A stretch of DNA of 64,000 bases from a virus (lineage: Duplodnaviria; Caudoviricetes). The position numbers and the translations under genes were made by a program. The notes beneath the pieces were generated by a model that saw only the letters and a program-made list of their open reading frames with translations, was not told where the DNA came from and searched no databases. Location of the stretch: positions 1-64,000 of IMG/VR virus record IMGVR_UViG_3300048060_000061. The stretch is one strand, 5' to 3'. Within the stretch, counting starts at the first letter, position 1, and each line of letters begins with the position of its first letter. Positions 15,855 through 62,366 of this stretch are shown here, piece after piece.

Positions 15855-15979
15855 CGGTCCACCCCCACGCCTGTGGGGAAAACTGGTAAAGCTAAGATGT
15901 CAGGTGGTCTAACAACGGTCCACCCCCACGCTTGTGGGGAAAACGAAAGCTGCCATCTGTTCGGTCCACTCCCATACGC
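15855..15979 (-). CRISPR. Mini-array 1 (type I-E-like repeat) downstream of tnpB
   Basis: Two 29-nt repeats GTTTTCCCCACA(A/G)GCGTGGGGGTGGACCG (15855-15883, 15916-15944), a 32-nt spacer, and a half-repeat (15962-15979) with a 17-nt spacer. Confidence 0.9.
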
Positions 15980-16070
15980 TATAATATTAAATTGTGAAGG
16001 TTTCGCTGTCAACCGAGCCAATGCAAGAAGGTTATCGACAGCGCAGTCACCCGCGAACCTACGGGCGATT
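15962..16070 (-). ncRNA. omegaRNA/tracr-like scaffold copy 1, overlapping the tnpB stop codon
   Basis: Homologous to 17804-17924 and 23670-23790 with compensatory stem changes; overlap with the tnpB 3' end is typical of omegaRNA. Confidence 0.8.
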
Positions 16071-17333
16071 ATAATCAGGATTTACGAAAAGTCGTATCCC
16101 CTCGTTTCTCAGGTTAATAGCTGCGTTCAGATCACGTTCATTCTGTTGTCCGCAGCCTTCGCAAGTCCATATCCTGTCACTCAAAGTTAGGTCAAGTTTT
16201 TTTTCTCCACATCCTGAACACAACTTAGATGAGGGGAACCACTGATCTACTATACCAATAGTACCATTATAAAAATCAGCTTTATATTCAAATTGCCGTT
16301 TCATTTCGTAAAAGCCAGCATCAGAAATAGCTTTGGCTAATTTATGGTTTTTTAGCATCCCGCCAACATTTAAGTCTTCGAGAATGATAAGGCCATAATT
16401 CTTTGTGACGTTTGCTGTCAATTGATGTTGAGCGTTGCGCCGTAGATTTTTAATCCTGGTATGTAGATTTTTAATTTTGTGCTCAGTTCGTAGCATCTGG
16501 TTAGACTGATTTTTCGGACGTTTGCCTTTTTTCACTGTGCCATCTTCATTGTAGCATCCTGGATTATTAGACCGGCGTTGTCGGTCTAATTTCCGTTGCA
16601 ATCGCCTTAACTGAGCCTGTGCTTTATAATATGCTTTAGGATTTTCAATAGTTTCGCTATCGCTAGTAACGGCAAGATATTTAATCCCCAAGTCGACTCC
16701 TACGATTTCAGAACTTGGAATAATATCAGGCTTTTCAAACTTAACCTGAATTGAGGCCCAAAACCATTGACCGTCATAAGAGAAGGTAGCGTTCATTATC
16801 TTGCCCTGAAAACGCAATTCTTCGCACATTCTGATATAACCAACTTTGGTATTATAGCGAATATGTTGACCGTCTAATTTCAGACAGATATTAGTAGCCC
16901 GGAAGCTATTATGGTTTCGTTTGCTGCGCCAATTTAACCAGCCTGATTGACGGTAATCCTTGCGAGGTTTGTCATTATGACTATTGATTTTGACCTTACC
17001 CTTACGAATGTCAAAGTATCGTTGCAATCCCTTTTGCAAGTCACCAAAAGCCTCTTGAGTAGCACTGGCAGTTTTATCCTTCACCCAATCTGGTTTAATT
17101 TTATTGTACAGGGCTTTGAGGCTCTTTTGCTCGGTCACTTTATCATTAACAGTAATTGATGTGAATTTGTAATTTTCACCAGTTTCACGATAGGTTATTC
17201 GGTTTAGATCATACTCAAAATCGAGTATCTCTTTGCCGAAATTCCAGGCATTACGGGCGGCTGCAAAGGCCCTCATTAGGTGTTGCTTTTGCTTTTCGGT
17301 TGGTCTAAGTCTAATTTTGTGTGATCTTATCAT
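16059..17333 (-). CDS. tnpB: TnpB-family RNA-guided nuclease, CRISPR-flanked, no transposase partner
   Basis: N-terminal HKIRLRPT...ARNAWN; RuvC I GVDLG, RuvC II LEDL, Zn finger CSGC/CEGC, Ruv[13 protein letters not shown]. Confidence 0.92.
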
Positions 17334-17369
17334 TTTATTAGAATGTAAAGTAATTTCAGTCGGTTTATT

Positions 17370-17803
17370 CGGTCCACTCCTACGCTTGTAAGAAAAACGG
17401 ACAAACTTGTGTTTTAAGAAAAGGGCGGTCCACCCTCACGCTTGTGGGGAAAACCGTTACGCCTATTGCTACCACAGATGCCACTCCGGTCCACCCCCAC
17501 GCTTGTGGGGAAAACCCAAACACAGCGCAAGCTGCCACAAGTTGATCCGGTCCACCCCCACGCCTGTGGGGAAAACAAACATTATGACGGTCCACCCCCA
17601 CGCTTGTGGGGAAAACTCATCACAACGTTTGCAATCGGTCATATCGCACCGGTCCACCCCCACGCTTGTGGGGAAAACGTTGCCCTGAGATTTGTTGTTT
17701 TGAATAGGCGTACGGTCCACCCCCACGCTTGTGGGGAAAACTCATCACAACGTTTGCAATCGGTCATATCGCACCGGTCCACCCCCACGCTTGTGGGGAA
17801 AAC
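17370..17803 (-). CRISPR. Mini-array 2 (8 repeats, 7 spacers) upstream of tnpB
   Basis: Repeats start at 17370 (degenerate), 17426, 17487, 17548, 17588, 17650, 17713, 17775; spacers 27, 32, 32, 11, 33, 34, 33 nt. Confidence 0.97.
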
Positions 17804-17924
17804 ACTACTAACGTGTAACATTCACCCACACGCTATAATATTAAATTGTGAAGGTTTGACAGACAACCAAGCCAACGCTCTAGGGTTCACGTCTGTCCAG
17901 TCACCGGCGGACCTGCCGGCGATT
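17804..17924 (-). ncRNA. Scaffold copy 2 / array leader
   Basis: Hairpin CGCCGGC-AGGTCC-GCCGGTG, stem GACAGAC..AACC/GGTT..GTCTGTC, anti-repeat ACCTTCAC. Confidence 0.8.
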
Positions 17925-18288: not shown

Positions 18289-19890
18289 CTATTCTATCCT
18301 GTCAGCCTTTACAAAATCGCTTATCACTTGCGGCGTAGATGTATCAAACCCTATAACATCCAGCATACCACTATCTTCAGGGTCAGCAACACTAAATCCA
18401 CTGGGAGTCATCCCCACTACAACAAGCTTGGATGGAATTTCCATTTGATGGCGATATTGTTGCAGCGCTTGTACAGGATGGATATTACCAGCCCAGGTTT
18501 CATTATCCGTATAGACAATAAAAGTATCTATTTCAATTCCGTTTTGTAGCGCATACAACATTGGTAAAGCGCAATCGGTCCGCCCCCACGGAATATCATA
18601 TATCTGTTGGATAACATCATCTAATCGTTGTCGGGCGGATAAAGTGACCGGGATCATTTGATGACTAAAAGCCGTAATTATATGATGTGGTTCCATTCTG
18701 GCTGTAATCATAGCCATTGCTCCAGTAGCTTCGCGAGGTGTAATAGGCATCCCGGCGATAGTATTCCAACTCATTGAAGCCGAAACATCAAGAGCTAGCA
18801 TTGTCCGTTTATTAGTTATTTCGGTATTACCAAATGACAAATAGAAAGCCTCATCTAATGCGTTAATAATTTCAGTAATCGGTGACCAAGATAATCTGCC
18901 TTTCATTCCGTGACCCTGGGCGTAAATTTTTAGAGCTACCAAGATAGCCAAGGGATGAAGTCGCGACTTTTTGATATAGGCTTGATCAGTTAATTTACCG
19001 ATAATAAGGCTTGTTTCGTTCCCCATCGGTTTTAATAATCCCACCCGTGTCATTTTCCCTAAGTTTCGTATTAACGCCGTAAGAGGCATTTTTTGTAGAA
19101 GGGCGCTCCAAATGGCAGGCTCGTTAAGCCATTTGGTCGGGATCATTTCGCGAGTAAGACCTTCATCTAAAATAAGGGAAACTATAGCCAATTTGTTTGT
19201 GGCAACCTTGGCATGCTCAAAGGCGGCAATTAAATCTATATCGCCATATTTTGCTTCTGGGTTACCGACAATCCATTTATATAGGTCATTTCGCATATCT
19301 GCGTCCTTAGAATTATCCGGTATTGGATGGCTGAGGCGTAAAGCATCTCGATGACTCCATCCGTCGCGTTGCTGGTACTTAATTACTTGATAGGCCAGTT
19401 TATCGACAGGCATATAATTGTACCAATTAGCTACAGCCCGGCGTAAGCCTCGTCCCCAACCCCGAAAGCCCTCAACGTATTCAAGGAAATGGAAAAGGTG
19501 AGTACCAATGCGGGCCACTTGCGGAAGTACATCAAAGGCCGCCCGGCGCGTTTCAATATCTCCTATTCCAGCACATATAGCTAACGTAAACAAAGCTGGA
19601 TCGTTCTTGGGCGCTCGACCACCTTTACTGACTTCAACGACTTTAGCAACAACTTGTGGACCGTTATTTTTGATACAGCGTACCACTGCCTGCGCGTTAT
19701 CAATTGTTAATTTTCGTTCATTGGCATAGTAGGTCCCCCCCTCAGATCCCAGGACAAGAAAACGGTCCAGGCGTATCCAGTCATCGACTGCAAAGACATA
19801 CCCCCCGGCCGAATTTTTGACCATTTGTTTATCTGGAATTGCTTGGGTTTGTGGAGTTTGTCTGATTGAAAAATGCTGTCTGTATTTCAT
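18289..19890 (-). CDS. rsr: Ro60 / TROVE-vWA RNA-binding protein
   Basis: NSAGGYVF, RFLVLGSEGGTYY, GWGRGLRRAV, KYQQRDGWSHRD, MPLTALIRNLGKMT, vWA DVSASM, YTDNET, GFD; start placed at ATG 19890 after GGAG RBS. Confidence 0.95.
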   Translation of the reverse strand: MKYRQHFSIRQTPQTQAIPDKQMVKNSAGGYVFAVDDWIRLDRFLVLGSEGGTYYANERKLTIDNAQAVVRCIKNNGPQVVAKVVEVSKGGRAPKNDPALFTLAICAGIGDIETRRAAFDVLPQVARIGTHLFHFLEYVEGFRGWGRGLRRAVANWYNYMPVDKLAYQVIKYQQRDGWSHRDALRLSHPIPDNSKDADMRNDLYKWIVGNPEAKYGDIDLIAAFEHAKVATNKLAIVSLILDEGLTREMIPTKWLNEPAIWSALLQKMPLTALIRNLGKMTRVGLLKPMGNETSLIIGKLTDQAYIKKSRLHPLAILVALKIYAQGHGMKGRLSWSPITEIINALDEAFYLSFGNTEITNKRTMLALDVSASMSWNTIAGMPITPREATGAMAMITARMEPHHIITAFSHQMIPVTLSARQRLDDVIQQIYDIPWGRTDCALPMLYALQNGIEIDTFIVYTDNETWAGNIHPVQALQQYRHQMEIPSKLVVVGMTPSGFSVADPEDSGMLDVIGFDTSTPQVISDFVKADRIE

Positions 19891-19926
19891 AAATATCTCC
19901 TCTGGATAGTAATAAATTTGAACAAC

Positions 19927-19958
19927 AAAAAGAAGCCGGGAAATCCCGGCTTCTTTTT
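19927..19958. terminator. Bidirectional hairpin between Y RNAs and Ro60
   Basis: AAAAAGAAGCCGGG-AAAT-CCCGGCTTCTTTTT. Confidence 0.75.
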
Positions 19959-19964
19959 GTAATA

Positions 19965-20089
19965 TAGGCAAATTATTGAAATTGGGGCTTTTAGTGCTCT
20001 ACCACTGAGCTACCCGCCTTGGTAGGCGGGGCTGGATTTGAACCAACGACCACTCTCTTTCAAGGAGATAACCCAACATCGTCCGGCCC
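19965..20089 (-). ncRNA. yrlA: YrlA-like Y RNA with circularly permuted tRNA-like domain
   Basis: 5' GGGCCGGA and 3' AATTTGCC Ro-binding stem; T arm GTTGG-TTCAAAT-CCAGC, closed acceptor CCCGCC/GGCGGG, D arm GCTC-AGTGGTA-GAGC; adjacent to Ro60. Confidence 0.85.
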
Positions 20090-23669: not shown

Positions 23670-23790
23670 AATCGCCCGTAGGTTCGCGGGTGACTGGACA
23701 GACGTGAACCTTCTCGCATTAGCTCGGTTGTCTGTCAAACTTTCACAATTTAATATTTAAGCGTGTGGGTGAATGTTACACGTTAGTAGT
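23670..23790 (+). ncRNA. Scaffold copy 3 (orphan, no adjacent nuclease)
   Basis: CGCCCGT-AGGTTC-GCGGGTG hairpin, GACAGAC/GTCTGTC stem, ACTTTCAC anti-repeat; homologous to copies 1 and 2. Confidence 0.8.
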
Positions 23791-23944
23791 GTTTTCCCCA
23801 CAGGCGTGGGGGTGGACCGCGTTTGTCAAGGACTGCTACCAATTGGGACGTCAGTTTTCCCCACAGGCGTGGGGGTGGACCGACATTGCCGACGTGTACG
23901 GGATTAGTTTTATTGGTTTTCCCCACAGGCGTGGGGGTGGACCG
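23791..23944 (+). CRISPR. Mini-array 3 (3 repeats, 2 spacers)
   Basis: GTTTTCCCCACAGGCGTGGGGGTGGACCG at 23791, 23854, 23916; spacers 34 and 33 nt. Confidence 0.95.
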
Positions 23945-34010: not shown

Positions 34011-34961
34011 ATGAAGTTATTAAGAAAGCAAAGTATACTAAATGGCGAATGTATGAATCTGGCGAACGCCAACTTTTGTGGGGCCGATCTGCGTAACGCC
34101 AACCTTCGTGGGGCCGACCTGAGCGATGCCAAACTAAACAACGCCGACCTGACGAATGCCCACCTGAACAGGGCCAACTTGTTCAAGGCCGACCTGAGCG
34201 GGGCCAAACTGCGTGGGGCCAAACTGTACGATGCCAACCTGTGCAGGGCAAACCTGCGCGAGGCTGGCCTGACATATGTCAAGCTCAATAGGGCTAACTT
34301 GTGCCAGGCCGACCTGTACAGGGTTAACCTGTGTGACGCCGATCTAAGTGGGGCCGACCTGAGTGGGGCCGACCTACGTGACGCCGACCTGCGCAGGGCA
34401 AACCTGAGCGATGTCCAACTGATCAGGGCCAAACTGCACTTGGCCAACCTAATGAACGCCAAGCTGAACGGAGCTGATCTGAGTTGGACCGACCTGCGTT
34501 GGGCCGACCTACACGGAGCCGACCTACACAGGGCCGCCCTGCGCGACGCCAATCTGAATGGAGCCGACCTGCGTAGGGCCAAACTGCGTAGGGCCAACCT
34601 GTACAAGGCCAACCTGTACAAGGCCAACCTGTACAAGGCCGACCTGAGTAATGTCGACCTGCGCGAGGCCAACCTAAGTGGGGCCGACCTGTACAAGGTA
34701 AATCTGAGCGGGGCCAATCTGAACGGGGCCGACCTTAGCTTTGCAACCATCGAAAATTGCAAAGGAATAAAGGTTCTATTAAAGGATCCCCGTCGCAAAG
34801 AAGGTTACATCCTGATTAGATGGTATAAAGATGGGCAAGATTGGTATAATAGCGGTTGCCGATCATTCAAGAAATCTGTTGCCCTCGACCATTGGGGTGG
34901 GAGTAATTATGCCTGCCCCCCACGCGGGCAACTGTACGTCGATGCCATTTTAGGGAACTAA
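34011..34961 (+). CDS. Pentapeptide-repeat protein with conserved C-terminal domain
   Basis: Tandem A(D/N)Lxx repeats followed by YILIRWYKDGQDWYNSGCRSF. Confidence 0.92.
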   Translation: MKLLRKQSILNGECMNLANANFCGADLRNANLRGADLSDAKLNNADLTNAHLNRANLFKADLSGAKLRGAKLYDANLCRANLREAGLTYVKLNRANLCQADLYRVNLCDADLSGADLSGADLRDADLRRANLSDVQLIRAKLHLANLMNAKLNGADLSWTDLRWADLHGADLHRAALRDANLNGADLRRAKLRRANLYKANLYKANLYKADLSNVDLREANLSGADLYKVNLSGANLNGADLSFATIENCKGIKVLLKDPRRKEGYILIRWYKDGQDWYNSGCRSFKKSVALDHWGGSNYACPPRGQLYVDAILGN

Positions 34962-34986
34962 AGAAAATACTATAAAGGACTAACCA

Positions 34987-35517
34987 ATGAATACAGAGCA
35001 AAAGCAAAATCTGAGCAGGGCCAACCTAATGAACGCCAATCTGAACGGAGCTGATCTGAGTTGGACCGACCTGCGCTGGGCCGACCTACACGGGGCCGAC
35101 CTACACGGGGCCGACCTGCGCGAGGCCAACCTGAGTGGGGCCGACCTGCGTTGGGCCAAACTGTATAAGGCCAAACTGTACTGGGCTAACCTGCGCGGGG
35201 CCGACCTGCACGGGGCCGACCTGACCGACGCCAGCTTATGGGGAGCCAACCTGACCGACACCGACCTGACCGACACCGACCTGACCGACACCGACTTTAG
35301 CTTTGCAACAATCGAAAATTGCAAAGGGATAGAGGTTTTATTGCATGATCCCCGCGAGGGGAAAGGTTACATTCTTATTAGATGGTATAAAGATGGGCAA
35401 GATTGGTATAATAGCGGTTGCCGATCATTCAAGAAATCTGTTGCCCTCGACCATTGGGGTGGGAGTAATTATGCCTGCCCCCCACGCGGGCAACTGTATG
35501 TCAATGCCATTTGGTAG
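34987..35517 (+). CDS. Pentapeptide-repeat protein
   Basis: MNTEQKQNL start, A(D/N)Lxx repeats, same C-terminal domain. Confidence 0.92.
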   Translation: MNTEQKQNLSRANLMNANLNGADLSWTDLRWADLHGADLHGADLREANLSGADLRWAKLYKAKLYWANLRGADLHGADLTDASLWGANLTDTDLTDTDLTDTDFSFATIENCKGIEVLLHDPREGKGYILIRWYKDGQDWYNSGCRSFKKSVALDHWGGSNYACPPRGQLYVNAIW

Positions 35518-39832: not shown

Positions 39833-40396
39833 TCATAATGATTTCTCCAATCTCTCTATCGCATCGACATACAGTTGCCCGCGTGGGGGGCAGGCATAAT
39901 CACTGCCGCCCCAATGGTCGAGGGCATCAAATTTCTTGAACGATCGGCAACCGCTATTATACCAATCTTGCCCATCTTTATACCATCTAATAAGAATGTA
40001 ACCATCCTCGCGACGGGGATCCTTTAATAGAACCTCTATCCCTTTGCAATTTTCGATTGTTGCAAAATTAAGTTTGGCGTCGCGCAGGTTGGCCCCAATC
40101 AGATTGGCGTCGCTCAGGTTGGCCCAGCGCAGGTTGGCCCCGTTCAGGTTGGCCCCGCTCAGGTCGGCCCCGCTCAGGTCGGCCCCGCGCAGGTCGGCCC
40201 CAATCAGCTTGGCCCCGCGCAGGTCGGCTCCAATTAGCTTGGCCCCGCGCAGGTTGGCCTCGCGCAGGTCGGCCCCGCTCAGATTAGTGTTCGTCAAGTT
40301 AGCCCTGCTCAGGTTAGCGTCACGCAGATCGGCGGCGCGCAGGTCGCCGCCGGTCAGGTTGGCCCTACTCAGATTTTGCTTTTGCTCTGTATTCAT
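39833..40396 (-). CDS. Pentapeptide-repeat protein
   Basis: Same N- and C-terminal constant regions as 34987, different repeat tract. Confidence 0.92.
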   Translation of the reverse strand: MNTEQKQNLSRANLTGGDLRAADLRDANLSRANLTNTNLSGADLREANLRGAKLIGADLRGAKLIGADLRGADLSGADLSGANLNGANLRWANLSDANLIGANLRDAKLNFATIENCKGIEVLLKDPRREDGYILIRWYKDGQDWYNSGCRSFKKFDALDHWGGSDYACPPRGQLYVDAIERLEKSL

Positions 40397-40527
40397 TGGT
40401 TAGTCCTTTCTCGCTAGTTAAATTACTCAGTCTTAAATACAAGTATAACCGATTTTAACTAATTTCAATAATTTAAGGTAGTATTCTAATTTGTTCTATC
40501 TATCTCTTGCCTTAAGCCTTTGAAAAA

Positions 40528-40632
40528 TTGATAAACGTTCCATAATTCGCTATAATGTAAGAAACACATAAGCCCGGCGCAAGCCTCGCGTACATCAGGT
40601 TCGGAAACTCACCTTTACGGTGAGTTTTTTTT
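40528..40632 (+). promoter_or_regulatory. Structural-operon promoter + structured leader + terminator, copy A
   Basis: TTGATA-17-TATAAT; AGCCCGGCGCAAGCCTCGC..CATCAGGTTCGG; AAACTCACC-loop-GGTGAGTTTTTTT. Confidence 0.75.
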
Positions 40633-40642
40633 GTGAGAACCT

Positions 40643-41860
40643 ATGGCGAGATCTGATACTGTCACTTTACTTCCTCTTGATCGCTATGCACAGATTATGC
40701 AAATCCCTCTCCCACATTTTAATCAGATGAATGGTAATAAGGCTCCAAAAGTTGGAGCTAATTGTAATAGTTTGTGGGACCAAAACGCCAGAGATGCGTT
40801 AGCCTGGGTAATGGCACAGGCAGAGGAGATGATTGCAGAATATCTCAATTTCTGGCCTAGCCCAAAATTCATTACCGAAGAAGAAATTCAATTCAGTTTG
40901 CCGGGAATTCGGAGTGATTGGTGGCACGCAGAAGTTCCAACTCGGTGGTCTAAAATAGACTGTTTTGGAACTGAACAGTTAACGCTAAAAATGGCTGATG
41001 CTAATGTCATTTATACCAATTCAAATAATAATCCGAATGATCGAGAAAACTTGGCGACTATCTCAAGTACCGGTCTTTATGTTGACGAACTGGGCGCATG
41101 TGATGACAAGTGCGAGGTGGCCGTATTCTTTCGTGAGGCAGATGGGGCAGAAGACTCGGCAGATTGCCGATGGGAGATAAGACCACTCAAGGTGGATATT
41201 GATGGTTCAACTATGTCAATAACCGGTGATAGCGCAATGTTTGTAAAACCCGAGCTTTGGGAATTGACTGAACTTGAATCAGAAGGTTCTGTGGATAGTG
41301 AAGCATGGGAGATTAACTTCGATACCGCTAATCTTGTTTCACAAGTAGATGTCTATTGTAGAACAGTCAACCAGGCAACACCTGTTACCCTGCTCTGGGA
41401 AGGTATATGCGATTGCCCCGGCGTGTGTGAACATTCAACTCAAACAGCTTGCGCGTATAGGACTGATAAACGACGCGGTTTTTTCGTCCCAAGGTCGGCT
41501 ACCTGGAATGGCACAAGAAATATTTTTGCCAGTCCATTACATCGCCATATTGCACCCGAAAGTCTACAAGCAAATTATCGGGCGGGGATGCCTCTTGATA
41601 AATCTTGCAGGATGAACCAGTCAATGGAGCGGGCCATCGTAAAGCTGACAAATGCCCTGCTTCCTGAGCCGCCGTGTTCGTTTTGTGGTGATGTAGCCGT
41701 GAGAATTTGGCAAGACGACCGCAAGGCAGTCGATCCGTTGACTCCTGAAGCGGCCAGCATGCCGTTTGATATCTACAAACGCGGTGCGCTTGAAGCCTGG
41801 CGAATTATTAAATTGTTCGCTAGAGGTAGGGGCGGTAAAATGGGCAGAGGATATCGTTGA
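40643..41860 (+). CDS. Head-tail adaptor / head completion protein
   Basis: QAEEMIAEYLNF and ANYRAG...MERAIVKL adaptor-like motifs; lies between head and tail genes. Confidence 0.55.
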   Translation: MARSDTVTLLPLDRYAQIMQIPLPHFNQMNGNKAPKVGANCNSLWDQNARDALAWVMAQAEEMIAEYLNFWPSPKFITEEEIQFSLPGIRSDWWHAEVPTRWSKIDCFGTEQLTLKMADANVIYTNSNNNPNDRENLATISSTGLYVDELGACDDKCEVAVFFREADGAEDSADCRWEIRPLKVDIDGSTMSITGDSAMFVKPELWELTELESEGSVDSEAWEINFDTANLVSQVDVYCRTVNQATPVTLLWEGICDCPGVCEHSTQTACAYRTDKRRGFFVPRSATWNGTRNIFASPLHRHIAPESLQANYRAGMPLDKSCRMNQSMERAIVKLTNALLPEPPCSFCGDVAVRIWQDDRKAVDPLTPEAASMPFDIYKRGALEAWRIIKLFARGRGGKMGRGYR

Positions 41861-42034
41861 TACAATCTTCGCGTAAGACTGCGGCCCACCTGACGCTCTG
41901 ATTTCTCGCTGTAATTCGGTCTATTATTGCCTGCGGTAATGGAGCGGTTGCCATAAAAACAAAAACTCACCATTGGTTGATGAGTTTTTGACTAGTACTG
42001 GCAAATATATGGCAACAAATCTTTTTGCAATCAG

Positions 42035-42223
42035 CTAAGTATTCTGATCTAAAGCCATCCTAACCAGCATGCAAATGTATGTCGCCATTGGTATAAGGCC
42101 ACGTTCTTTCTGTAGGCGGTCGTACAATTCGGGCGGCATTGTTACCATGTGCCGCACGAACTTTTTTTCCCCCTTGCTTGCTTTGGTCTTTGGCCCTGTT
42201 TTGGATCGTGTATTGCTTTCCAT
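42035..42223 (-). CDS. Ribbon-helix-helix (CopG/Arc-like) protein
   Basis: RHMVTMPPELYDRLQKERGLIPMATYICMLV. Confidence 0.65.
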   Translation of the reverse strand: MESNTRSKTGPKTKASKGEKKFVRHMVTMPPELYDRLQKERGLIPMATYICMLVRMALDQNT

Positions 42224-42281
42224 AATCAGTTCCTTTCATAGTGCGAAAATTCAAATCATCCCAAAATATATTCCACTTTTG

Positions 42282-42719
42282 TCACGTTTTAGGCACGAAC
42301 CCTTTGCAATTTTCTAACCTGGCCTTGTTTAGGTTAGCCTCGTTCAAGTTGGCTCCGTTCAAGTTGGCTCCGTTTAAGTTGGCTCCGCGCAAGTCAGCCT
42401 CACTCAGGTTAGCGTCGGTCAGGTTGGCGTCGCGCAAGTCAGCCCAGCGCAAGTCAGCGCAGGTCAGGTTAGTATTTGTCAGGTTGGCCCCGATCAGGTC
42501 GGCTCTGATCAGTTTGGCATCGGTCAGATCGGCTCCGATCAACTTGGCTCCGATCAGCTTGGCTCCGATTAGTTTGGCGCTGTTCAAGTCGGCATCGCGT
42601 AAGTCGGCCCTGCACAGGTTGGCCCCGATTAGCTTGGCCCCGCACAGGATAACCCTGTTCAGATCGGCTCCGTATAGGTCAGCTCCGTATAGGTTGGCGT
42701 CGCGCAGATTTTTCTTCAT
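42282..42719 (-). CDS. Pentapeptide-repeat protein, C-terminal domain truncated
   Basis: Repeats ending ARLENCKG. Confidence 0.9.
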   Translation of the reverse strand: MKKNLRDANLYGADLYGADLNRVILCGAKLIGANLCRADLRDADLNSAKLIGAKLIGAKLIGADLTDAKLIRADLIGANLTNTNLTCADLRWADLRDANLTDANLSEADLRGANLNGANLNGANLNEANLNKARLENCKGFVPKT

Positions 42720-42746
42720 AATGTTTAGTCCTTTATAGTATTTTCT

Positions 42747-43325
42747 TTAGTTCCCTAAAATGGCATCAATGTATTGTTGACCCCGTTCTTTATCTGGGTA
42801 GTTCTTGCTACCCCAATGGTCGAGGGCAACAGATTTCTTGAATGATCGGCAACCGCTATTATACCAATCTTGCCCATCTTTATACCATCTAATCAGGATG
42901 TAACCATCCTCGCGGGGATCCTTTAATAGAACCTTTATTCCTTTGCAATTTTCGATTGTTGCAAAGTTAAAAGTAGCGTCGCGCAGATTGGCGTCGCGCA
43001 GTTTGGCTCCGATTATCTTGGCCCAACGCAGGTCGGCCCCACTCAGGTTAGCTCCGATCAGGTTGGCGTCGCGCAGGTAGGCCCCGTATAGGTTGGCCCC
43101 GCGCAGGTCGACATTACTCAGGTCGGCCCCGCGCAGGTTAGCCCCGCTCAGGTTGGCCCCACTCAGGTTGGCCTCGCGCAGGTCGGCCCCGTGTAGGTCA
43201 GCCCTGTGTAGGTCGGCTCCGTGTAGGTCGGCCCAGCGCAGGTCGGTCCAACTCAGATCAGCTCCGTTCAGATTGGCGTTCATTAGGTTGGCCCTGCTCA
43301 GATTTTGCTTTTGCTCTGTATTCAT
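42747..43325 (-). CDS. Pentapeptide-repeat protein
   Basis: First ~105 nt identical to 34987; shared C-terminal domain. Confidence 0.92.
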   Translation of the reverse strand: MNTEQKQNLSRANLMNANLNGADLSWTDLRWADLHGADLHRADLHGADLREANLSGANLSGANLRGADLSNVDLRGANLYGAYLRDANLIGANLSGADLRWAKIIGAKLRDANLRDATFNFATIENCKGIKVLLKDPREDGYILIRWYKDGQDWYNSGCRSFKKSVALDHWGSKNYPDKERGQQYIDAILGN

Positions 43326-43893: not shown

Positions 43894-44042
43894 TTTAGTC
43901 ATCTCCTTTTTCGTTAATCTTTCTATCACTCAGTCTTGAATACAAGTATAACCGATTTTACCTATATTGTCAACTAATTTCAATAATTTAAGGTAGTATT
44001 CTAATTTGTTCTATCTATCTCTTGCCTTTTACCTTTGAAAAA

Positions 44043-44147
44043 TTGATAAACGTTCCATAATTCGCTATAATGTAAGAAACATATAAGCCCGGCGCAAGCC
44101 TCGCGTACATCAGGTTCGGAAACTCGCCTTTACGGTGAGTTTTTTTT
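44043..44147 (+). promoter_or_regulatory. Structural-operon promoter/leader/terminator, copy B
   Basis: Near identical to copy A; the A>G change in the terminator stem keeps a G-U pair. Confidence 0.75.
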
Positions 44148-44219
44148 GTTTGAAAATAGTCTGGAAGAGCGCAGACATAGTTAAAAGAAATAGTAGCAAT
44201 AACGCAAAAAGAGGTAATT

Positions 44220-51714: not shown

Positions 51715-52455
51715 TATCTGCCCACCATCCGAACTTTTTGACTTGTTTGAGCCATTGTTTCTTGGTCATTACCAAACCATATGTAACCAATTCATACCGA
51801 ATGTCGGCCCTGATCGGCTGTGGTATAGTACCTAAGACAAATTATTTTTTTCATCATTTCAGTTTTCCTTTGGCGTCTTCTCAGGCTTCTATGAATAATG
51901 TATTAATTTCTTTGATTCTATCAAGATAGTTTTTGGTCATAGAAATACCATGCTCATCCTCTCCAAGACCATTTTCAACTAAATCTGAAGCGAACGATTG
52001 AATAGCTACCCGGACGGTCATAGCTTGACCAGTCGTTAATAATGTTCCGTTTACTATGATTTTTGGTTCATCAATTGAAAAAGTAGGCTTATTCATTTTA
52101 TTACCTTTGTTGTTTTCTGGTCAGTATGCCGTCTTATTTTGTTTACACACACCATCCGCAATGCCCAAAACTCAGTTTTACTTCTAGCATCCTGACTATC
52201 TTTTCGTATTCTTCTTCAGATATATTGTATTTTTCTAAAATGAACTGAGTAGATGGCTTGCCTTCGAAAATCATATTACCACACCCGTACATCCCGGGAT
52301 TGTTATCATGTTGATTTCCAAATTCCCTGCTATCGCCTTTCACTTGATTTATGATAAATTTAGATGTGCTACATAATGTATCGGGTACTTCTAATTCTAC
52401 TTTCATTTTCTAAGTCCTTTCATTTTCTAAGTCAGTCAATCCTTAACTCCCCTTT

Positions 52456-52485
52456 ACTATACCACGAAGTATATGGTTCTGTCAA
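52456..52485 (-). promoter_or_regulatory. Conserved promoter motif, copy 2
   Basis: TTGACA-GAACCATATACTTCGTGG-TATAGT. Confidence 0.75.
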
Positions 52486-52548
52486 CCCCCAATCTAATAT
52501 GTGCTGCGCAAGCACTTACGAGTTTCCATTACCGATACCATACAAAAA

Positions 52549-52894: not shown

Positions 52895-52898
52895 ATAA

Positions 52899-52973
52899 TG
52901 GCCCCTCCCGGATTCGAACCGGGACTGTCTGCATTTTAAGTGCAGTGCCTCATACCAATTGCGCTAAGGGGCC
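52899..52973 (-). tRNA. tRNA-Leu (TAA) with short variable loop
   Basis: GGCCCCT/AGGGGCC, CTGCA-CTTAAAA-TGCAG, V loop ACAGT, CCCGG-TTCGAAT-CCGGG. Confidence 0.85.
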
Positions 52974-53106
52974 AAATTATCTTACCTGAAAGTCTACTTA
53001 AATCGTCTCAACTTCAAACCTACCGTTTCTATTTTCATTTACTTCCCTTTTATCACTAGCCATCATTTGCGATTAAAGTGTACGGTATAGGTATACCAGT
53101 TTTCCA

Positions 53107-53143
53107 TCGAACCGGGACTGTCTGCATTTTAAGTGCAGTGCCT
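53107..53143 (-). repeat. Exact 37-nt copy of tRNA-Leu(TAA) segment 52914-52950
   Basis: TCGAACCGGGACTGTCTGCATTTTAAGTGCAGTGCCT occurs at both positions. Confidence 0.95.
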
Positions 53144-53152
53144 GTTCTTTTT

Positions 53153-53426
53153 ACTTACTCACAAACGCCCGTGGGGAAACCATGCAACACCGGGCCTGAT
53201 TTCGGTTTAAAATCACTGATCCTCCAAACGCCCGTGGGGAAACCGACCTCCACAACCCACGATAACCGTTGAACCCACTGATCCTCCAAACGCCCGTGGG
53301 GAAACCGAATTGATCCTTATCAAAACAAACATCCCTGATCCTCCAAACGCCCGTGGGGAAACCTGTGAAGTGGGTTCGCGCATGTTCAACCGCGAACCTG
53401 ATCCTCCAAACGCCCGTGGGGAAACC
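53153..53426 (-). CRISPR. Mini-array 4 (5 repeats, 4 spacers) downstream of the C2c9/Cas12n-like gene
   Basis: 29-nt GGTTTCCCCACGGGCGTTTGGAGGATCAG at 53398, 53335, 53278, 53216 and degenerate 53153; spacers 34, 28, 33, 34 nt. Confidence 0.95.
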
Positions 53427-53526
53427 CCTGAAAAGAGCAAATAAAAAGGTAATTCGCTCACTGTTAATATCAGCCGAATAATCTTGGCTGCACGTAACTA
53501 GTGTCTTGGTTGAGCAGTCCCAACCG
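53427..53526 (-). ncRNA. Predicted omega/tracr-like RNA overlapping the 3' end of the nuclease gene
   Basis: Hairpin GGTTGGG-ACTG-CTCAACC, stems CACT.GTTA/TAAC.AGTG and CAGCC/GGCTG, then CCTTT..TGCTC complementary to repeat GGGCG..GGAGG. Confidence 0.55.
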
Positions 53527-54849
53527 TGCAGACTTTTCCTCTAGCCTGCGTTCAAATTGCCCGGTTCGTGCTAATAAAATTACCTTAACATCTTTATAAG
53601 GCGTAAATAACCGTATCTCAGGATCATTCAGCCTGGCCAAGATATTCCGAGCAGCATTTGTATCCGCTTGCAATACCTTCCCGTCGAAACAGTAAAACCT
53701 ATCCCCATTACGATGCCCCAATAGGATACCGTGCCGGGAATCAGTTTGCGAGGTATATGCAGCATTAACTGTTTTAATCGTAGAACCTCTACGATTAGAT
53801 ACCGATTCTATTGCCTCAGCTATAGCACCCTTCGTCCAACCAGCAAGACGGCGGTTTTGATTCTTGCCGTATGACTTGCCATTTATCGGGTTCGTTAAAT
53901 CTTCGGTGACTATAATGTCGGCCTTGTCAACTACTGAATGAGCCGCCTTGAAAATCTTGTCTCTTACATTGGCTGTATGTATACGCTTGCGCTCATCCAG
54001 CTTTTTACGCCCCAAGTTGTTTTTTAGAATATTATCACACTTATGGGGCTTCGCTTCCGCTATTGCCTTTAGCTTGTTTCTACGTTGATACTTGGTTTTA
54101 AGATAGTCTGATTCCTTACTTAACAATTCTCCTAGTCCTTCACCGTGGTGTTTCCCATCTGAATCTACAAAGACCTCAGTATAACCTTTATCAATTCCTA
54201 TAGTCCCATCACCACTGGGTCGAGTAACGCAAACCTTTTCCTCATCAATAGCATAATGTACTTCAATACGTCCATTACGTAGGATCAACCGAAGTGTTCC
54301 CGATGGAGTATTGTTGCTATTCAAAGGGATAGCTATGCGCTTCCCAGATTCCAAGCTCATTACCTTAAGCCAAATCTTACCACCCTTTTCAAAAGTCGTA
54401 TAGCATTGGGAATCCAGTACAATCTGATTATCAACCTTGGTTTTACCGTGCTTAAAATATTTACGCATCATACGACGCAAATAACTATCTTTCAACCAAT
54501 TGTCATATTTAAGCAGAGTATAAAGGCGTTTACGCTCGTCATTATCATCAGTCCTTTGGCGTATTGCCTTTCGCACTTTGACTTTGGCAGCTTCACGGTA
54601 AGTAACTATATCTGCGAAAGTATCTCTTAAGGTTTCATTCCGAAGACGGGCGGCAATATTAAAGTGCCTACCTTCGGCGGTCCATTGATTTCTTATTTGA
54701 CGGTGTGTTAATTCTACACCTTGGACTGAACCAAAGCGTTGCCAGACTTCAGCCCGTAGTTTGCCCAATCGACTAGCCATTTCAGTTAATTGAGCTAACT
54801 TTCCTTCATTAAGATTTTGGCTGTAGATAATCCGAGTAACTTTACTCAT
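53470..54849 (-). CDS. cas12n: C2c9/Cas12n (type V-U4)-like TnpB-lineage RNA-guided nuclease
   Basis: N-terminus KVTRIIYS..LNEGK...EVWQRFGS as I recall for the C2c9 clade; RuvC GIDKGY, TEDL, ADTNAARN; degenerate Zn finger; adjacent array. Confidence 0.7.
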   Translation of the reverse strand: MSKVTRIIYSQNLNEGKLAQLTEMASRLGKLRAEVWQRFGSVQGVELTHRQIRNQWTAEGRHFNIAARLRNETLRDTFADIVTYREAAKVKVRKAIRQRTDDNDERKRLYTLLKYDNWLKDSYLRRMMRKYFKHGKTKVDNQIVLDSQCYTTFEKGGKIWLKVMSLESGKRIAIPLNSNNTPSGTLRLILRNGRIEVHYAIDEEKVCVTRPSGDGTIGIDKGYTEVFVDSDGKHHGEGLGELLSKESDYLKTKYQRRNKLKAIAEAKPHKCDNILKNNLGRKKLDERKRIHTANVRDKIFKAAHSVVDKADIIVTEDLTNPINGKSYGKNQNRRLAGWTKGAIAEAIESVSNRRGSTIKTVNAAYTSQTDSRHGILLGHRNGDRFYCFDGKVLQADTNAARNILARLNDPEIRLFTPYKDVKVILLARTGQFERRLEEKSARLGLLNQDTSYVQPRLFG

Positions 54850-54856
54850 CAGATAC

Positions 54857-55048
54857 TTATACTACCTTGTCTTTCTTTTTTACCGTAGGTGGATTGACCT
54901 GAATATCACCGCTAATTCCCAACAGAATCAGAGCTTCAACATATGATTGCCAGCGAATAAAGCCAGATTTTTTAGCAATATCTATAAGTTTTTCTTTGAA
55001 ATCTTTTTCAATCCACATTTGGAGGTTGATTTGATTTTCACGGGTCAT
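54857..55048 (-). CDS. Ribbon-helix-helix-like regulator
   Basis: INLQMWIEKDFKEKLIDIAKKSGFIRWQSYVEALI; GAGGAG RBS; promoter TTGACA-17-TATATT at 55100-55072. Confidence 0.6.
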   Translation of the reverse strand: MTRENQINLQMWIEKDFKEKLIDIAKKSGFIRWQSYVEALILLGISGDIQVNPPTVKKKDKVV

Positions 55049-55133
55049 ATTTTTGCTCCTCAATCATATTCAATATACACCTCCTATACAGAATTGTCAA
55101 CTCTGGAATAGATATACTATAATTAAGCAAGAA

Positions 55134-55243
55134 TTGATAACTCTTGCTTAATTAGTTATAATGTAGACAAGCAAATATAGCCCGGCGCAAGCCTCGCACA
55201 CATCAGGTCCGGAAACTCACCTTCACGGTGAGTTTTTGTTTTT
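55134..55243 (+). promoter_or_regulatory. Structural-operon promoter/leader/terminator, copy C
   Basis: TTGATA-17-TATAAT with a different spacer but the same leader (AGCCCGGCGCAAGCCTCGC..CATCAGGTCCGG) and terminator. Confidence 0.75.
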
Positions 55244-61995: not shown

Positions 61996-62283
61996 TTAAA
62001 TTATCTGATACCAACCGTTACCGGTTCTACTAAGACGGCTATCACTATAGCGAGCTTCTGTATTTAAGATTGCTCTGATTTGATTTAGTCCGATAGTGTT
62101 TTTGTTTATTCGACGAGTATTACTATCAACTTTCTCTTTAACGTCTGCACCATCTTCTATTAACTGTTGTGCGACATGCTTACAATGGAATATCCCATCA
62201 AACTCTTGTGACGACACTTCATCCACTGTTTCCAACACTGTCTTTGTATTTATCATCCAGCCATCTTGAGTTCTTATAATCAT
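61996..62283 (-). CDS. Small hypothetical protein (duplicated 5' end at <1-97)
   Basis: AAGGAG RBS and conserved promoter upstream. Confidence 0.7.
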   Translation of the reverse strand: MIIRTQDGWMINTKTVLETVDEVSSQEFDGIFHCKHVAQQLIEDGADVKEKVDSNTRRINKNTIGLNQIRAILNTEARYSDSRLSRTGNGWYQII

Positions 62284-62366
62284 TTTCGTTTCTCCTTTTC
62301 GCTAGGTCCTGCTCTCAAATCTGTATTTATTATACCACGAAGTATATAGTTTTGTCAACCCCCAAT
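62187..62366. repeat. Second copy of the 1-181 repeat (includes promoter 62329-62358)
   Basis: Direct comparison shows two differences. Confidence 0.95.

Follow-up and report, generated by a model that had tools for sequence, protein, structure and literature searches.

A CRISPR array of hybrid repeats nested in the guide RNA of a TnpB-family nuclease locus in a phage

We analysed a 64,000-nt stretch of phage DNA (the window), which comprises the first 64 kb of a 103,196-bp IMG/VR record with direct terminal repeats. A short array on its minus strand, made up of four identical 29-nt repeats and one degenerate repeat (53153–53426), sits inside the terminal hairpin loop of an ancestral transposon omegaRNA, directly behind the gene of a predicted TnpB-family nuclease. 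Each full repeat is truly chimeric, its 5′ half being I-E-like and its 3′ end that of the omegaRNA. We read the locus as a domesticated IS607-type TnpB element whose guide RNA gained a CRISPR array within its last hairpin, and assign this reading a probability of about 70%. It draws on the observed anatomy of the locus, the homology of the repeat 3′ end to the omegaRNA, the covariation of the pairings between scaffold and repeat, and the inheritance of the whole arrangement within one clade of nucleases.

The array lies within an ancestral omegaRNA

The nuclease (P0001, 459 aa; 53470–54849, minus strand) has relatives whose guide RNA we surveyed in 13 metagenome loci, 12 copies in the Anaerolineae genome OZ241372.1 (G001) and 20 viral relatives. 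The RNA is conserved over the 3′ end of the gene and the next 40–80 nt, up to an invariant AGGAACAG. Because flanks are unrelated immediately past this octamer (in about 12 copies in G001), we take AGGAACAG to be the right end of the transposon. The family RNA is ordered as a 7-bp hairpin, P1, with the loop ACTG; a long helix, P2, around a variable hairpin; a single-stranded GCGAATTA; and a terminal hairpin, closed by a stem in which CC(U)n is bound to (A)nGG, and followed by five unpaired bases, AACAG, and then by the guide. In 15 array-less relatives, CC(U)n stands right behind GCGAAUUA and pairs with the (A)nGG right before AACAG.

The tracr-like scaffold of the phage (53427–53525, minus strand) overlaps the last 56 nt of the nuclease ORF and aligns with 28 family scaffolds. 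It consists of P1 (53508–53525, loop ACTG), the P2 and P3 helices, the single-stranded GCGAATTA and an anti-repeat formed by CCTTT (53445–53449) and TGCTC (53435–53439), and it is intact up to CCTTT, the 5′ strand of the terminal hairpin, after which comes the array. The missing parts of the omegaRNA reappear on the far side of the array: the ancestral 3′ strand and right end, AAAAAGAACAG (53142–53152, minus strand), one G short of the invariant octamer, and, in the place of the ancestral guide or flank, 37 nt identical to the phage's own tRNA-Leu(TAA) over its anticodon and T arms, shared AG included (53107–53143, minus strand). The old 3′ strand, right end and guide-position copy behind the array thus place it within the terminal hairpin loop of the ancestral omegaRNA.

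In order of transcription, repeat 1 (53398–53426), which abuts the scaffold, is followed by spacer 1 (53364–53397, 34 nt), repeat 2 (53335–53363), spacer 2 (53307–53334, 28 nt), repeat 3 (53278–53306), spacer 3 (53245–53277, 33 nt), repeat 4 (53216–53244), spacer 4 (53182–53215, 34 nt) and the degenerate terminal repeat (53153–53181), all on the minus strand, with repeats 2–4 identical copies of repeat 1. The terminal repeat is repeat-like in its first 20 nt only, beyond which it passes into the ancestral omegaRNA loop on the 3′ side; its tail, GAGTAAG, is found at the same place in array-less relatives, for example L020.

The intact tRNA-Leu(TAA) gene (52898–52974) lies 133 nt beyond the 37-nt copy. 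A relic unit of right end and tRNA-Leu copy would, if active, aim at this gene, and, given that match, loss of the G in the relic right end may have disarmed the unit.

The repeat joins an I-E-like half to the omegaRNA end

The phage record holds five repeat arrays. Four carry a canonical I-E-type 29-nt repeat (15855–15944, 17370–17803, 23791–23944 and, outside the window, 88394–88672), and the fifth, nested array carries a variant of it. A first-pass annotation of the segment from the first scaffold hairpin through the end of repeat 1 (53398–53526) had found these two 29-nt repeats identical at 15/17 positions of the 5′ part and at 5/12 of the 3′ part, and we obtained the same counts position by position. 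The chance of 15/17 at a fixed register is about 1e-7, and a 15-nt core pattern matches the phage genome 22 times, each time in a CRISPR repeat, with no match for the reversed control; the chimeric-repeat observation is therefore real and well past chance.

The 3′ half, which the annotation had taken for remodelled I-E sequence, is instead the end of the omegaRNA itself. Over its last 8 nt, the repeat agrees with the family octamer at 7/8 positions and with the I-E handle at only 3/8, and MAFFT placed GGAGGATCAG on AAAGGAACAG in one column block. Nor is the terminal CAG new, as had been proposed: it is part of the 3′ end of the ancestral omegaRNA (AGGAACAG in the family, AGGATCAG in the phage). 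Two A-to-G changes in the repeat still pair with scaffold U's. The suggested weakening of the Cas6e hairpin holds for the phage, whose repeat lacks two of the stem pairs in the I-E hairpin and folds with a minimum free energy (MFE) of −5.6 kcal/mol versus −13.1 kcal/mol for the I-E repeat, but not for the clade as a whole, the related repeats of L032 and L033 reaching −12.8 and −11.9 kcal/mol.

The nested array thus resembles a type I-E array in its 29-nt repeat length, in the nearly identical first 17 nt and in spacers of about 32–34 nt. It differs in lying within a TnpB guide RNA and in lacking both the stable Cas6e hairpin and the 8-nt handle ending in ACCG that mark type I-E arrays, its own hairpin being weaker and its handle, the omegaRNA end, identical at 3/8 positions. 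It also differs in being without cas genes: we found no I-E cas genes in the phage record, and no cas1, cas2, cas6 or Cascade gene among the ORFs near the variant array.

Covariation supports the scaffold–repeat pairings

The 3′ part of the repeat fits the RNA scaffold of the adjacent nuclease through pairings that are features of the whole family. When the structure set out above was scored on an alignment of 29 scaffolds, 96.2% of cells were paired and 13 pairs were doubly changed; none of 500 shuffles attained these values, and slid controls reached only 22–48% paired. Compensatory changes occur in P1, P2, the P4 closing stem and the pseudoknot.

The first-pass annotation had proposed that the CAG end complements the ACTG loop of P1 and that GGGCG..GGAGG of the repeat pairs with the upstream CCTTT..TGCTC, and had named covariation of loop and repeat end across homologous loci as a check. 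That covariation is present. The three-pair pseudoknot between loop CUG and tail CAG is 100% paired across the 29 scaffolds, its middle U:A being replaced by C:G in one relative (L058) and by A:U in another (L063). The second pairing, likewise family-wide and with compensatory changes, is present when scaffold tail and repeat 1 are folded together at MFE; this fold consists of 8 unpaired nt, the CCUUU/GGAGG stem, the UGCUC/GGGCG helix and 5 unpaired nt, these last being the ATCAG that ends repeat 1 ahead of the guide. Positions 12–24 of repeat 1 are those paired with the anti-repeat. MFE folds of scaffold tail and repeat 1 from the phage, L033 and L009 all show the shape typical of the family, and both proposed pairings are therefore correct.

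When scaffold and repeat are taken as separate strands, the duplex is short (10 bp including G–U pairs, −10.3 kcal/mol), and a scaffold-by-repeat energy matrix gave no cognate preference among the four array-bearing loci. Rfam yielded no family for the scaffold at gathering thresholds or at E-values up to 10, RAGATH-18 included.

The arrangement is inherited by a clade

Three further loci on metagenome contigs (L032, L033 and L009) have the same layout with different spacers and encode nucleases 78–80% identical to P0001. The right end is intact both in L032, where it follows two full repeats with 32-nt spacers, a third repeat that is degenerate and the ancestral side of the loop, and in L033, where it follows two repeats and a single 32-nt spacer; L009 has one repeat before its contig ends. 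TnpA is kept in L009 and L033, is reduced to its last 30 codons in L032 and is absent from the phage. The repeats of all four loci are 29 nt long, start with GGT, contain a pyrimidine run followed by AC and end in GGAGGATCA(G/A), and their 5′ halves depart from the I-E repeat at 2–6 of 17 positions.

The array-bearing proteins form one clade (SH-aLRT 99 in a quick IQ-TREE run) nested among array-less TnpBs and known so far from metagenome contigs only; a pattern scan of 185,579 species genomes and of IMG/VR found no further example of two consecutive chimeric repeats. The chimera was thus not formed against the I-E repeats of this phage, as the first-pass annotation had implied, but was inherited by the clade. 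That annotation had also named an observation that would speak against a repeat kept integrable by host I-E Cas1–Cas2, namely a repeat typical of Cas12n loci regardless of host I-E repeats. The repeat is indeed typical of the nuclease's clade, so that this objection applies in part, but the functional idea is untouched because the I-E-like half is kept clade-wide. The 5′ halves of the four loci diverge about as much as their nucleases do; plain descent therefore fits, and tracking of host repeats is not required.

Alternative origins of the array

The better of the alternatives to a gained I-E-like repeat is that the array arose by serial duplication of the omegaRNA 3′ segment alone, without any part for the I-E machinery, its I-E likeness being fortuitous or convergent. 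Duplication of an omegaRNA segment is the origin of type V arrays favoured by Altae-Tran et al. 2023 (PMC10691335), and it would account for the 3′ 10–14 nt of the repeat, which are omegaRNA-derived. It sits poorly, however, with the remainder of the repeat: the I-E repeat that it matches at 15/17 positions is found in this very genome and in I-E systems of Chloroflexota, the sister loci combine repeats of exactly 29 nt with 32-nt spacers, L032 retains the I-E hairpin strand GTGGGG in its terminal repeat, and array-less relatives have nothing I-E-like in that loop. We regard this origin as unlikely.

Marginally less probable again is a decaying I-E array next to which a TnpB element was inserted, with spacers that the nuclease would not use and that, if used at all, would serve host Cascade. 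That tnpB can insert close to an array already present is accepted as a scenario (PMC10691335), and the phage does carry four other I-E arrays devoid of cas genes. Yet the nested array is internal to the element, with the scaffold on one side and the right end of the element on the other, and its four full repeats are mutually identical, with no decay. Its 8-nt handle region agrees better with the omegaRNA end (7/8) than with the I-E handle (3/8), the layout is conserved over four loci with nucleases of one clade, and in the phage, processing by Cas6e is improbable given so weak a hairpin.

P0001 belongs to an IS607-type TnpB family

By sequence, P0001 is a member of a large IS607-type TnpB family. 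It scores 105.8 bits against NCBIfam NF040570 guided_TnpB (cut-off 100) and matches Pfam PF07282 (Cas12f1-like_TNB), and the predicted RuvC residues D220, E316 and D396 are invariant across the 27 sequences of our protein alignment (A1). Zinc-finger cysteines are absent. To the D-E-D RuvC site and the family profile that define a TnpB can be added a structured RNA that covers the 3′ end of the gene and ends at the right end, of which the phage keeps the scaffold and the right-end relic. An AF2 model (pLDDT 82) has the TnpB/Cas12f fold, with a disordered C-terminal tail (pLDDT below 50 for residues 445–459), and Foldseek found this model to resemble Cas12f, ISFba1 TnpB and ISDra2 TnpB at 14–16% identity.

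P0001 has more than 1760 homologues, the closest being P0003 at 84% identity. Homologues 69–78% identical adjoin, on its downstream side, a TnpA gene for a serine recombinase with MerR and Resolvase domains, as carried by L009, L011 and L033; serine-recombinase TnpA is the hallmark of IS607. About 20 intact family copies, 62–64% identical to P0001, occur in G001, where some of the TnpA genes beside TnpB copies contain stop codons (L129, G001:C1:492000–506000; L037–L048). The pairing of TnpA with several genomic copies that characterizes IS607 elements is thus found in the relatives but not in the phage, where the gene is single-copy and where no TnpA or remnant was found upstream in three frames. 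We conclude that the phage locus is a domesticated derivative.

The first-pass annotation had taken the nuclease for a Cas12n (type V-N, formerly V-U4), a group with a 5′-AAN PAM. PDB chains, Cas12n 9J09 among them, gave no sequence match to P0001 alone (E up to 0.01) or to the family profile (E up to 1), and Cas12n is absent from the best 49 Foldseek matches, so that the label is unsupported. A Cas12n system (V-U4/V-N) with its usual repeat is accordingly very improbable: the nuclease is small, the array is immediately downstream and the scaffold lies partly within the disordered C-terminal tail (residues 445–459, pLDDT <50), much as the Cas12n scaffold is partly encoded in the C-terminal tail of its gene (10.64898/2026.03.27.714800), but to the missing structural kinship is added that the nearest relatives (60–80% identity) are TnpBs of transposons, accompanied by TnpA and present in many copies in a genome.

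Predicted transcript and spacers

A promoter-like site (TTGACA, 17 nt, TATATT; 55072–55100, minus strand), which rests on a consensus match only, at 11/12 positions, lies upstream of a small ORF, the nuclease gene and the array. This near-consensus promoter, together with the lack of a terminator between gene and array, suggests that nuclease gene and array share one transcript. Its minus-strand order would be small ORF, nuclease, scaffold, array, old right end and tRNA genes. The small ORF (54857–55048, minus strand; 63 aa from its ATG) stands directly upstream of the nuclease, where relatives carry TnpA; it was considered as an RHH regulator and rejected as such, having no Pfam family.

Spacers 1–4 have no target in the phage itself, the homologous loci or INPHARED, and spacers 1–3 have none in IMG/VR. 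The first 20 nt of spacer 4 match exactly an IMG/VR contig, 3300035109_000100 (L128:14418–14437), with about 0.15 chance matches expected per 20-mer, and we do not count this match as a target since it is within chance expectation. The contig is viral and GC-rich, and the match, immediately 3′ of a tRNA gene, ends at 20 nt, a length that would suit a TnpB-type guide.

Source of the I-E-like half and possible uptake of spacers

The canonical repeat of the phage occurs letter for letter in an array of at least 35 repeats in a Chloroflexi MAG, directly behind a complete operon, cas3-cse1-cse2-cas7-cas5-cas6e-cas1e-cas2e, with each gene above its NCBIfam cut-off. G001 carries a 73-repeat array with a two-position variant of the I-E repeat near a Cas1e gene, and so unites copies of the TnpB family, a near-identical I-E repeat and Cas1e in one genome; an orphan I-E repeat lies at L034:6183–6213. 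With the same repeat adjoining a genuine I-E operon in Chloroflexota and a near-identical one in Anaerolineae, the host is probably a member of Chloroflexota. The 34 and 72 Chloroflexota I-E spacers that we compared with the phage had no target in it.

Uptake of spacers by the host's I-E Cas1–Cas2 is plausible, being suggested by the 29-nt repeat, the 32-nt spacers of the sister loci, the specificity of spacers to each locus and the occurrence of Cas1e, I-E repeat and TnpB in a single Anaerolineae genome. As Goren et al. 2016 reportedly found, the I-E repeat hairpin anchors the integration rulers in E. coli. With two stem pairs lost from its repeat and with spacers of irregular length (28–34 nt), the phage may integrate spacers less well today.

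In seven G001 copies the flank at the left end finishes with RG, in most cases AG, and the tRNA-Leu copy and the right end of the phage have AG in common; the TAM or crossover core therefore probably ends in AG. Such a core could conceivably suit spacers picked by an I-E module with an AAG PAM.

Other features of the phage genome

The large I-E array contains one spacer twice (17617–17649 and 17742–17774), as part of a 92-nt duplication, and one ‘spacer’ of just 11 nt (17577–17587), so that both irregularities fall within 17577–17774. A second, ordinary-looking TnpB (424 aa; 16059–17333, minus strand) is flanked on both sides by canonical I-E arrays (region 15855–17924). Ahead of each of the four I-E arrays of the phage is a conserved stretch of about 90–100 nt (also at 23700–23790 and, in the full record, 88300–88393), which is unlike the leader of the host I-E array; together with the second TnpB, it may represent a parallel scaffold-plus-array arrangement.

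Elsewhere in the window, a 560-aa Ro60/TROVE protein with a vWA domain is encoded at 18289–19971 on the minus strand (Pfam E-values 4e-68 and 1e-49), and no Y-RNA-like Rfam match was seen at gathering thresholds. An exact 127-nt repeat occurs at 1–127 and 62187–62313, followed each time by a 54-nt motif (regions 1–181 and 62187–62366), of which a third copy, 80% identical, lies beside the tRNA cluster (52440–52493). Runs with a 15-nt period, encoding five-residue protein repeats, are present in two gene regions (34068–35334 and 39969–43301), and near-identical segments of 180 nt and 65 nt that end in terminator-like hairpins lie at 40457–40639, 43972–44154 and 55179–55243.

Comparison with known systems

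Three kinds of known system resemble the locus. First, TranC systems (Jin et al., Cell 2025, as presented in PMC13565253, PMC13639567 and 10.64898/2026.03.27.714800) are described in these accounts as nucleases of TnpB lineage with arrays and a split right-end RNA; tracrRNA and crRNA are separate parts of the guide RNA, both crRNA and reRNA give activity, and a phage-borne member, CauTranC9, is known. The phage locus agrees with these accounts in having a TnpB-sized nuclease of IS605/IS607 descent, a short array immediately downstream, no cas1 or cas2 and a right-end RNA that is split, here as judged from sequence. It thus shares the combination of TnpB-lineage nuclease, adjacent array and missing adaptation genes, and its scaffold has the potential to pair with each repeat, as seen in duplex energies, fold and covariation. 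It differs from TranC as there described in its repeat, which is 29 nt long with a type I-E 5′ half, the published clades having repeats reported as 32–38 bp and of subtype unknown (10.64898/2026.03.27.714800), in an array whose nesting within the terminal hairpin is still visible, the old right end and guide having been kept, and in sisters that carry TnpA.

Second, Cas12r from Thermus Lalka phages (Trofimova et al., 10.64898/2026.04.20.719267) is the closest precedent for the I-E idea. It too is a phage-encoded TnpB-like nuclease with a short array of 29-bp repeats right behind it; the repeats share elements with the host I-E repeat, the spacers are 31–33 nt long, adaptation genes are missing, and the authors propose that spacers come from the host I-E module. 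The Lalka27a repeat (L050:3525–3614) equals the variant repeat at 18/29 positions, TGGAGG included. This motif stands equally far from the repeat end in both, the nucleases being remotely alike, and may reflect either convergence on I-E-compatible repeats or a deeper shared origin. The homology over the whole protein that would place P0001 in Cas12r is lacking: BLASTP aligned P0001 and LalCas12r at 37% identity over 92 aa only, hhalign gave a probability of 82% over 84 columns around RuvC-II, and tblastn against a phage collection containing Lalka27a found no match at E 1e-5. Cas12r is also larger (564 aa), reportedly needs no tracrRNA and comes from phages of thermophiles, whereas the locus described here has a conserved, covarying omegaRNA scaffold and probably a Chloroflexota host; nesting in an omegaRNA and TnpA-bearing relatives are undescribed for Cas12r (10.64898/2026.04.20.719267).

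Third, IS607 TnpB as represented by ISFba1 (PDB 8iaz, PMC11061315) is matched by TnpA upstream in relatives, by a scaffold over the 3′ end of tnpB, by a guide that is the DNA flanking the right end and by a TnpB fold that is among the best structural matches. P0001 differs in having no sequence match to solved TnpBs and no zinc-finger cysteines, and TnpA is lost from the phage copy, which has acquired an array.

Discussion

In the mechanism that we propose for the domesticated element, the phage scaffold (P1, P2, P3 and anti-repeat) is the family omegaRNA without its final strand, and each repeat supplies the missing strand: repeat positions 12–24 (GGGCG..GGAGG) pair with the anti-repeat, the terminal CAG forms the pseudoknot with CUG of the P1 loop, and the spacer occupies the place of the transposon's flank-derived guide. 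The nuclease would then use the spacers. Repeat 1 with spacer 1 would amount to a natural single guide in cis, and later units would have to use a scaffold in trans, as a tracrRNA is used with crRNAs. The 5′ half of the repeat would derive from a type I-E repeat, with its length retained, most likely to let the host's I-E Cas1–Cas2 insert spacers.

How the hybrid came about is more tentative. An I-E repeat may have been grafted onto the omegaRNA 3′ strand in a still-mobile element, after which host Cas1–Cas2 would write guides into the guide RNA, a sequence of events that we put slightly below even odds. Type V arrays have been proposed to originate from single-guide transposon RNAs by duplication of an omegaRNA segment, by insertion beside an array and by functional splitting of the RNA. 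If the grafting proposal is true, a hybrid of a type I repeat and an omegaRNA end would be a third route to such arrays, neither duplication nor insertion beside an array; the element would have been a mobile one with an adaptively reprogrammable TnpB; and a right-end or TAM core ending in AG would have made spacers from an I-E module (AAG PAM) usable at once.

The locus is a rare natural intermediate between a transposon guide and type V CRISPR. Together with its three sisters, it preserves scaffold, nested array, hybrid repeat, old right end and guide and, in the sisters, transposase; with these layers kept in one stretch of DNA, the order of events and the RNA contacts needed become directly testable with a 459-aa nuclease. 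Beside Cas12r, it would be a second, independent case of a phage nuclease array seemingly built to borrow host I-E adaptation.
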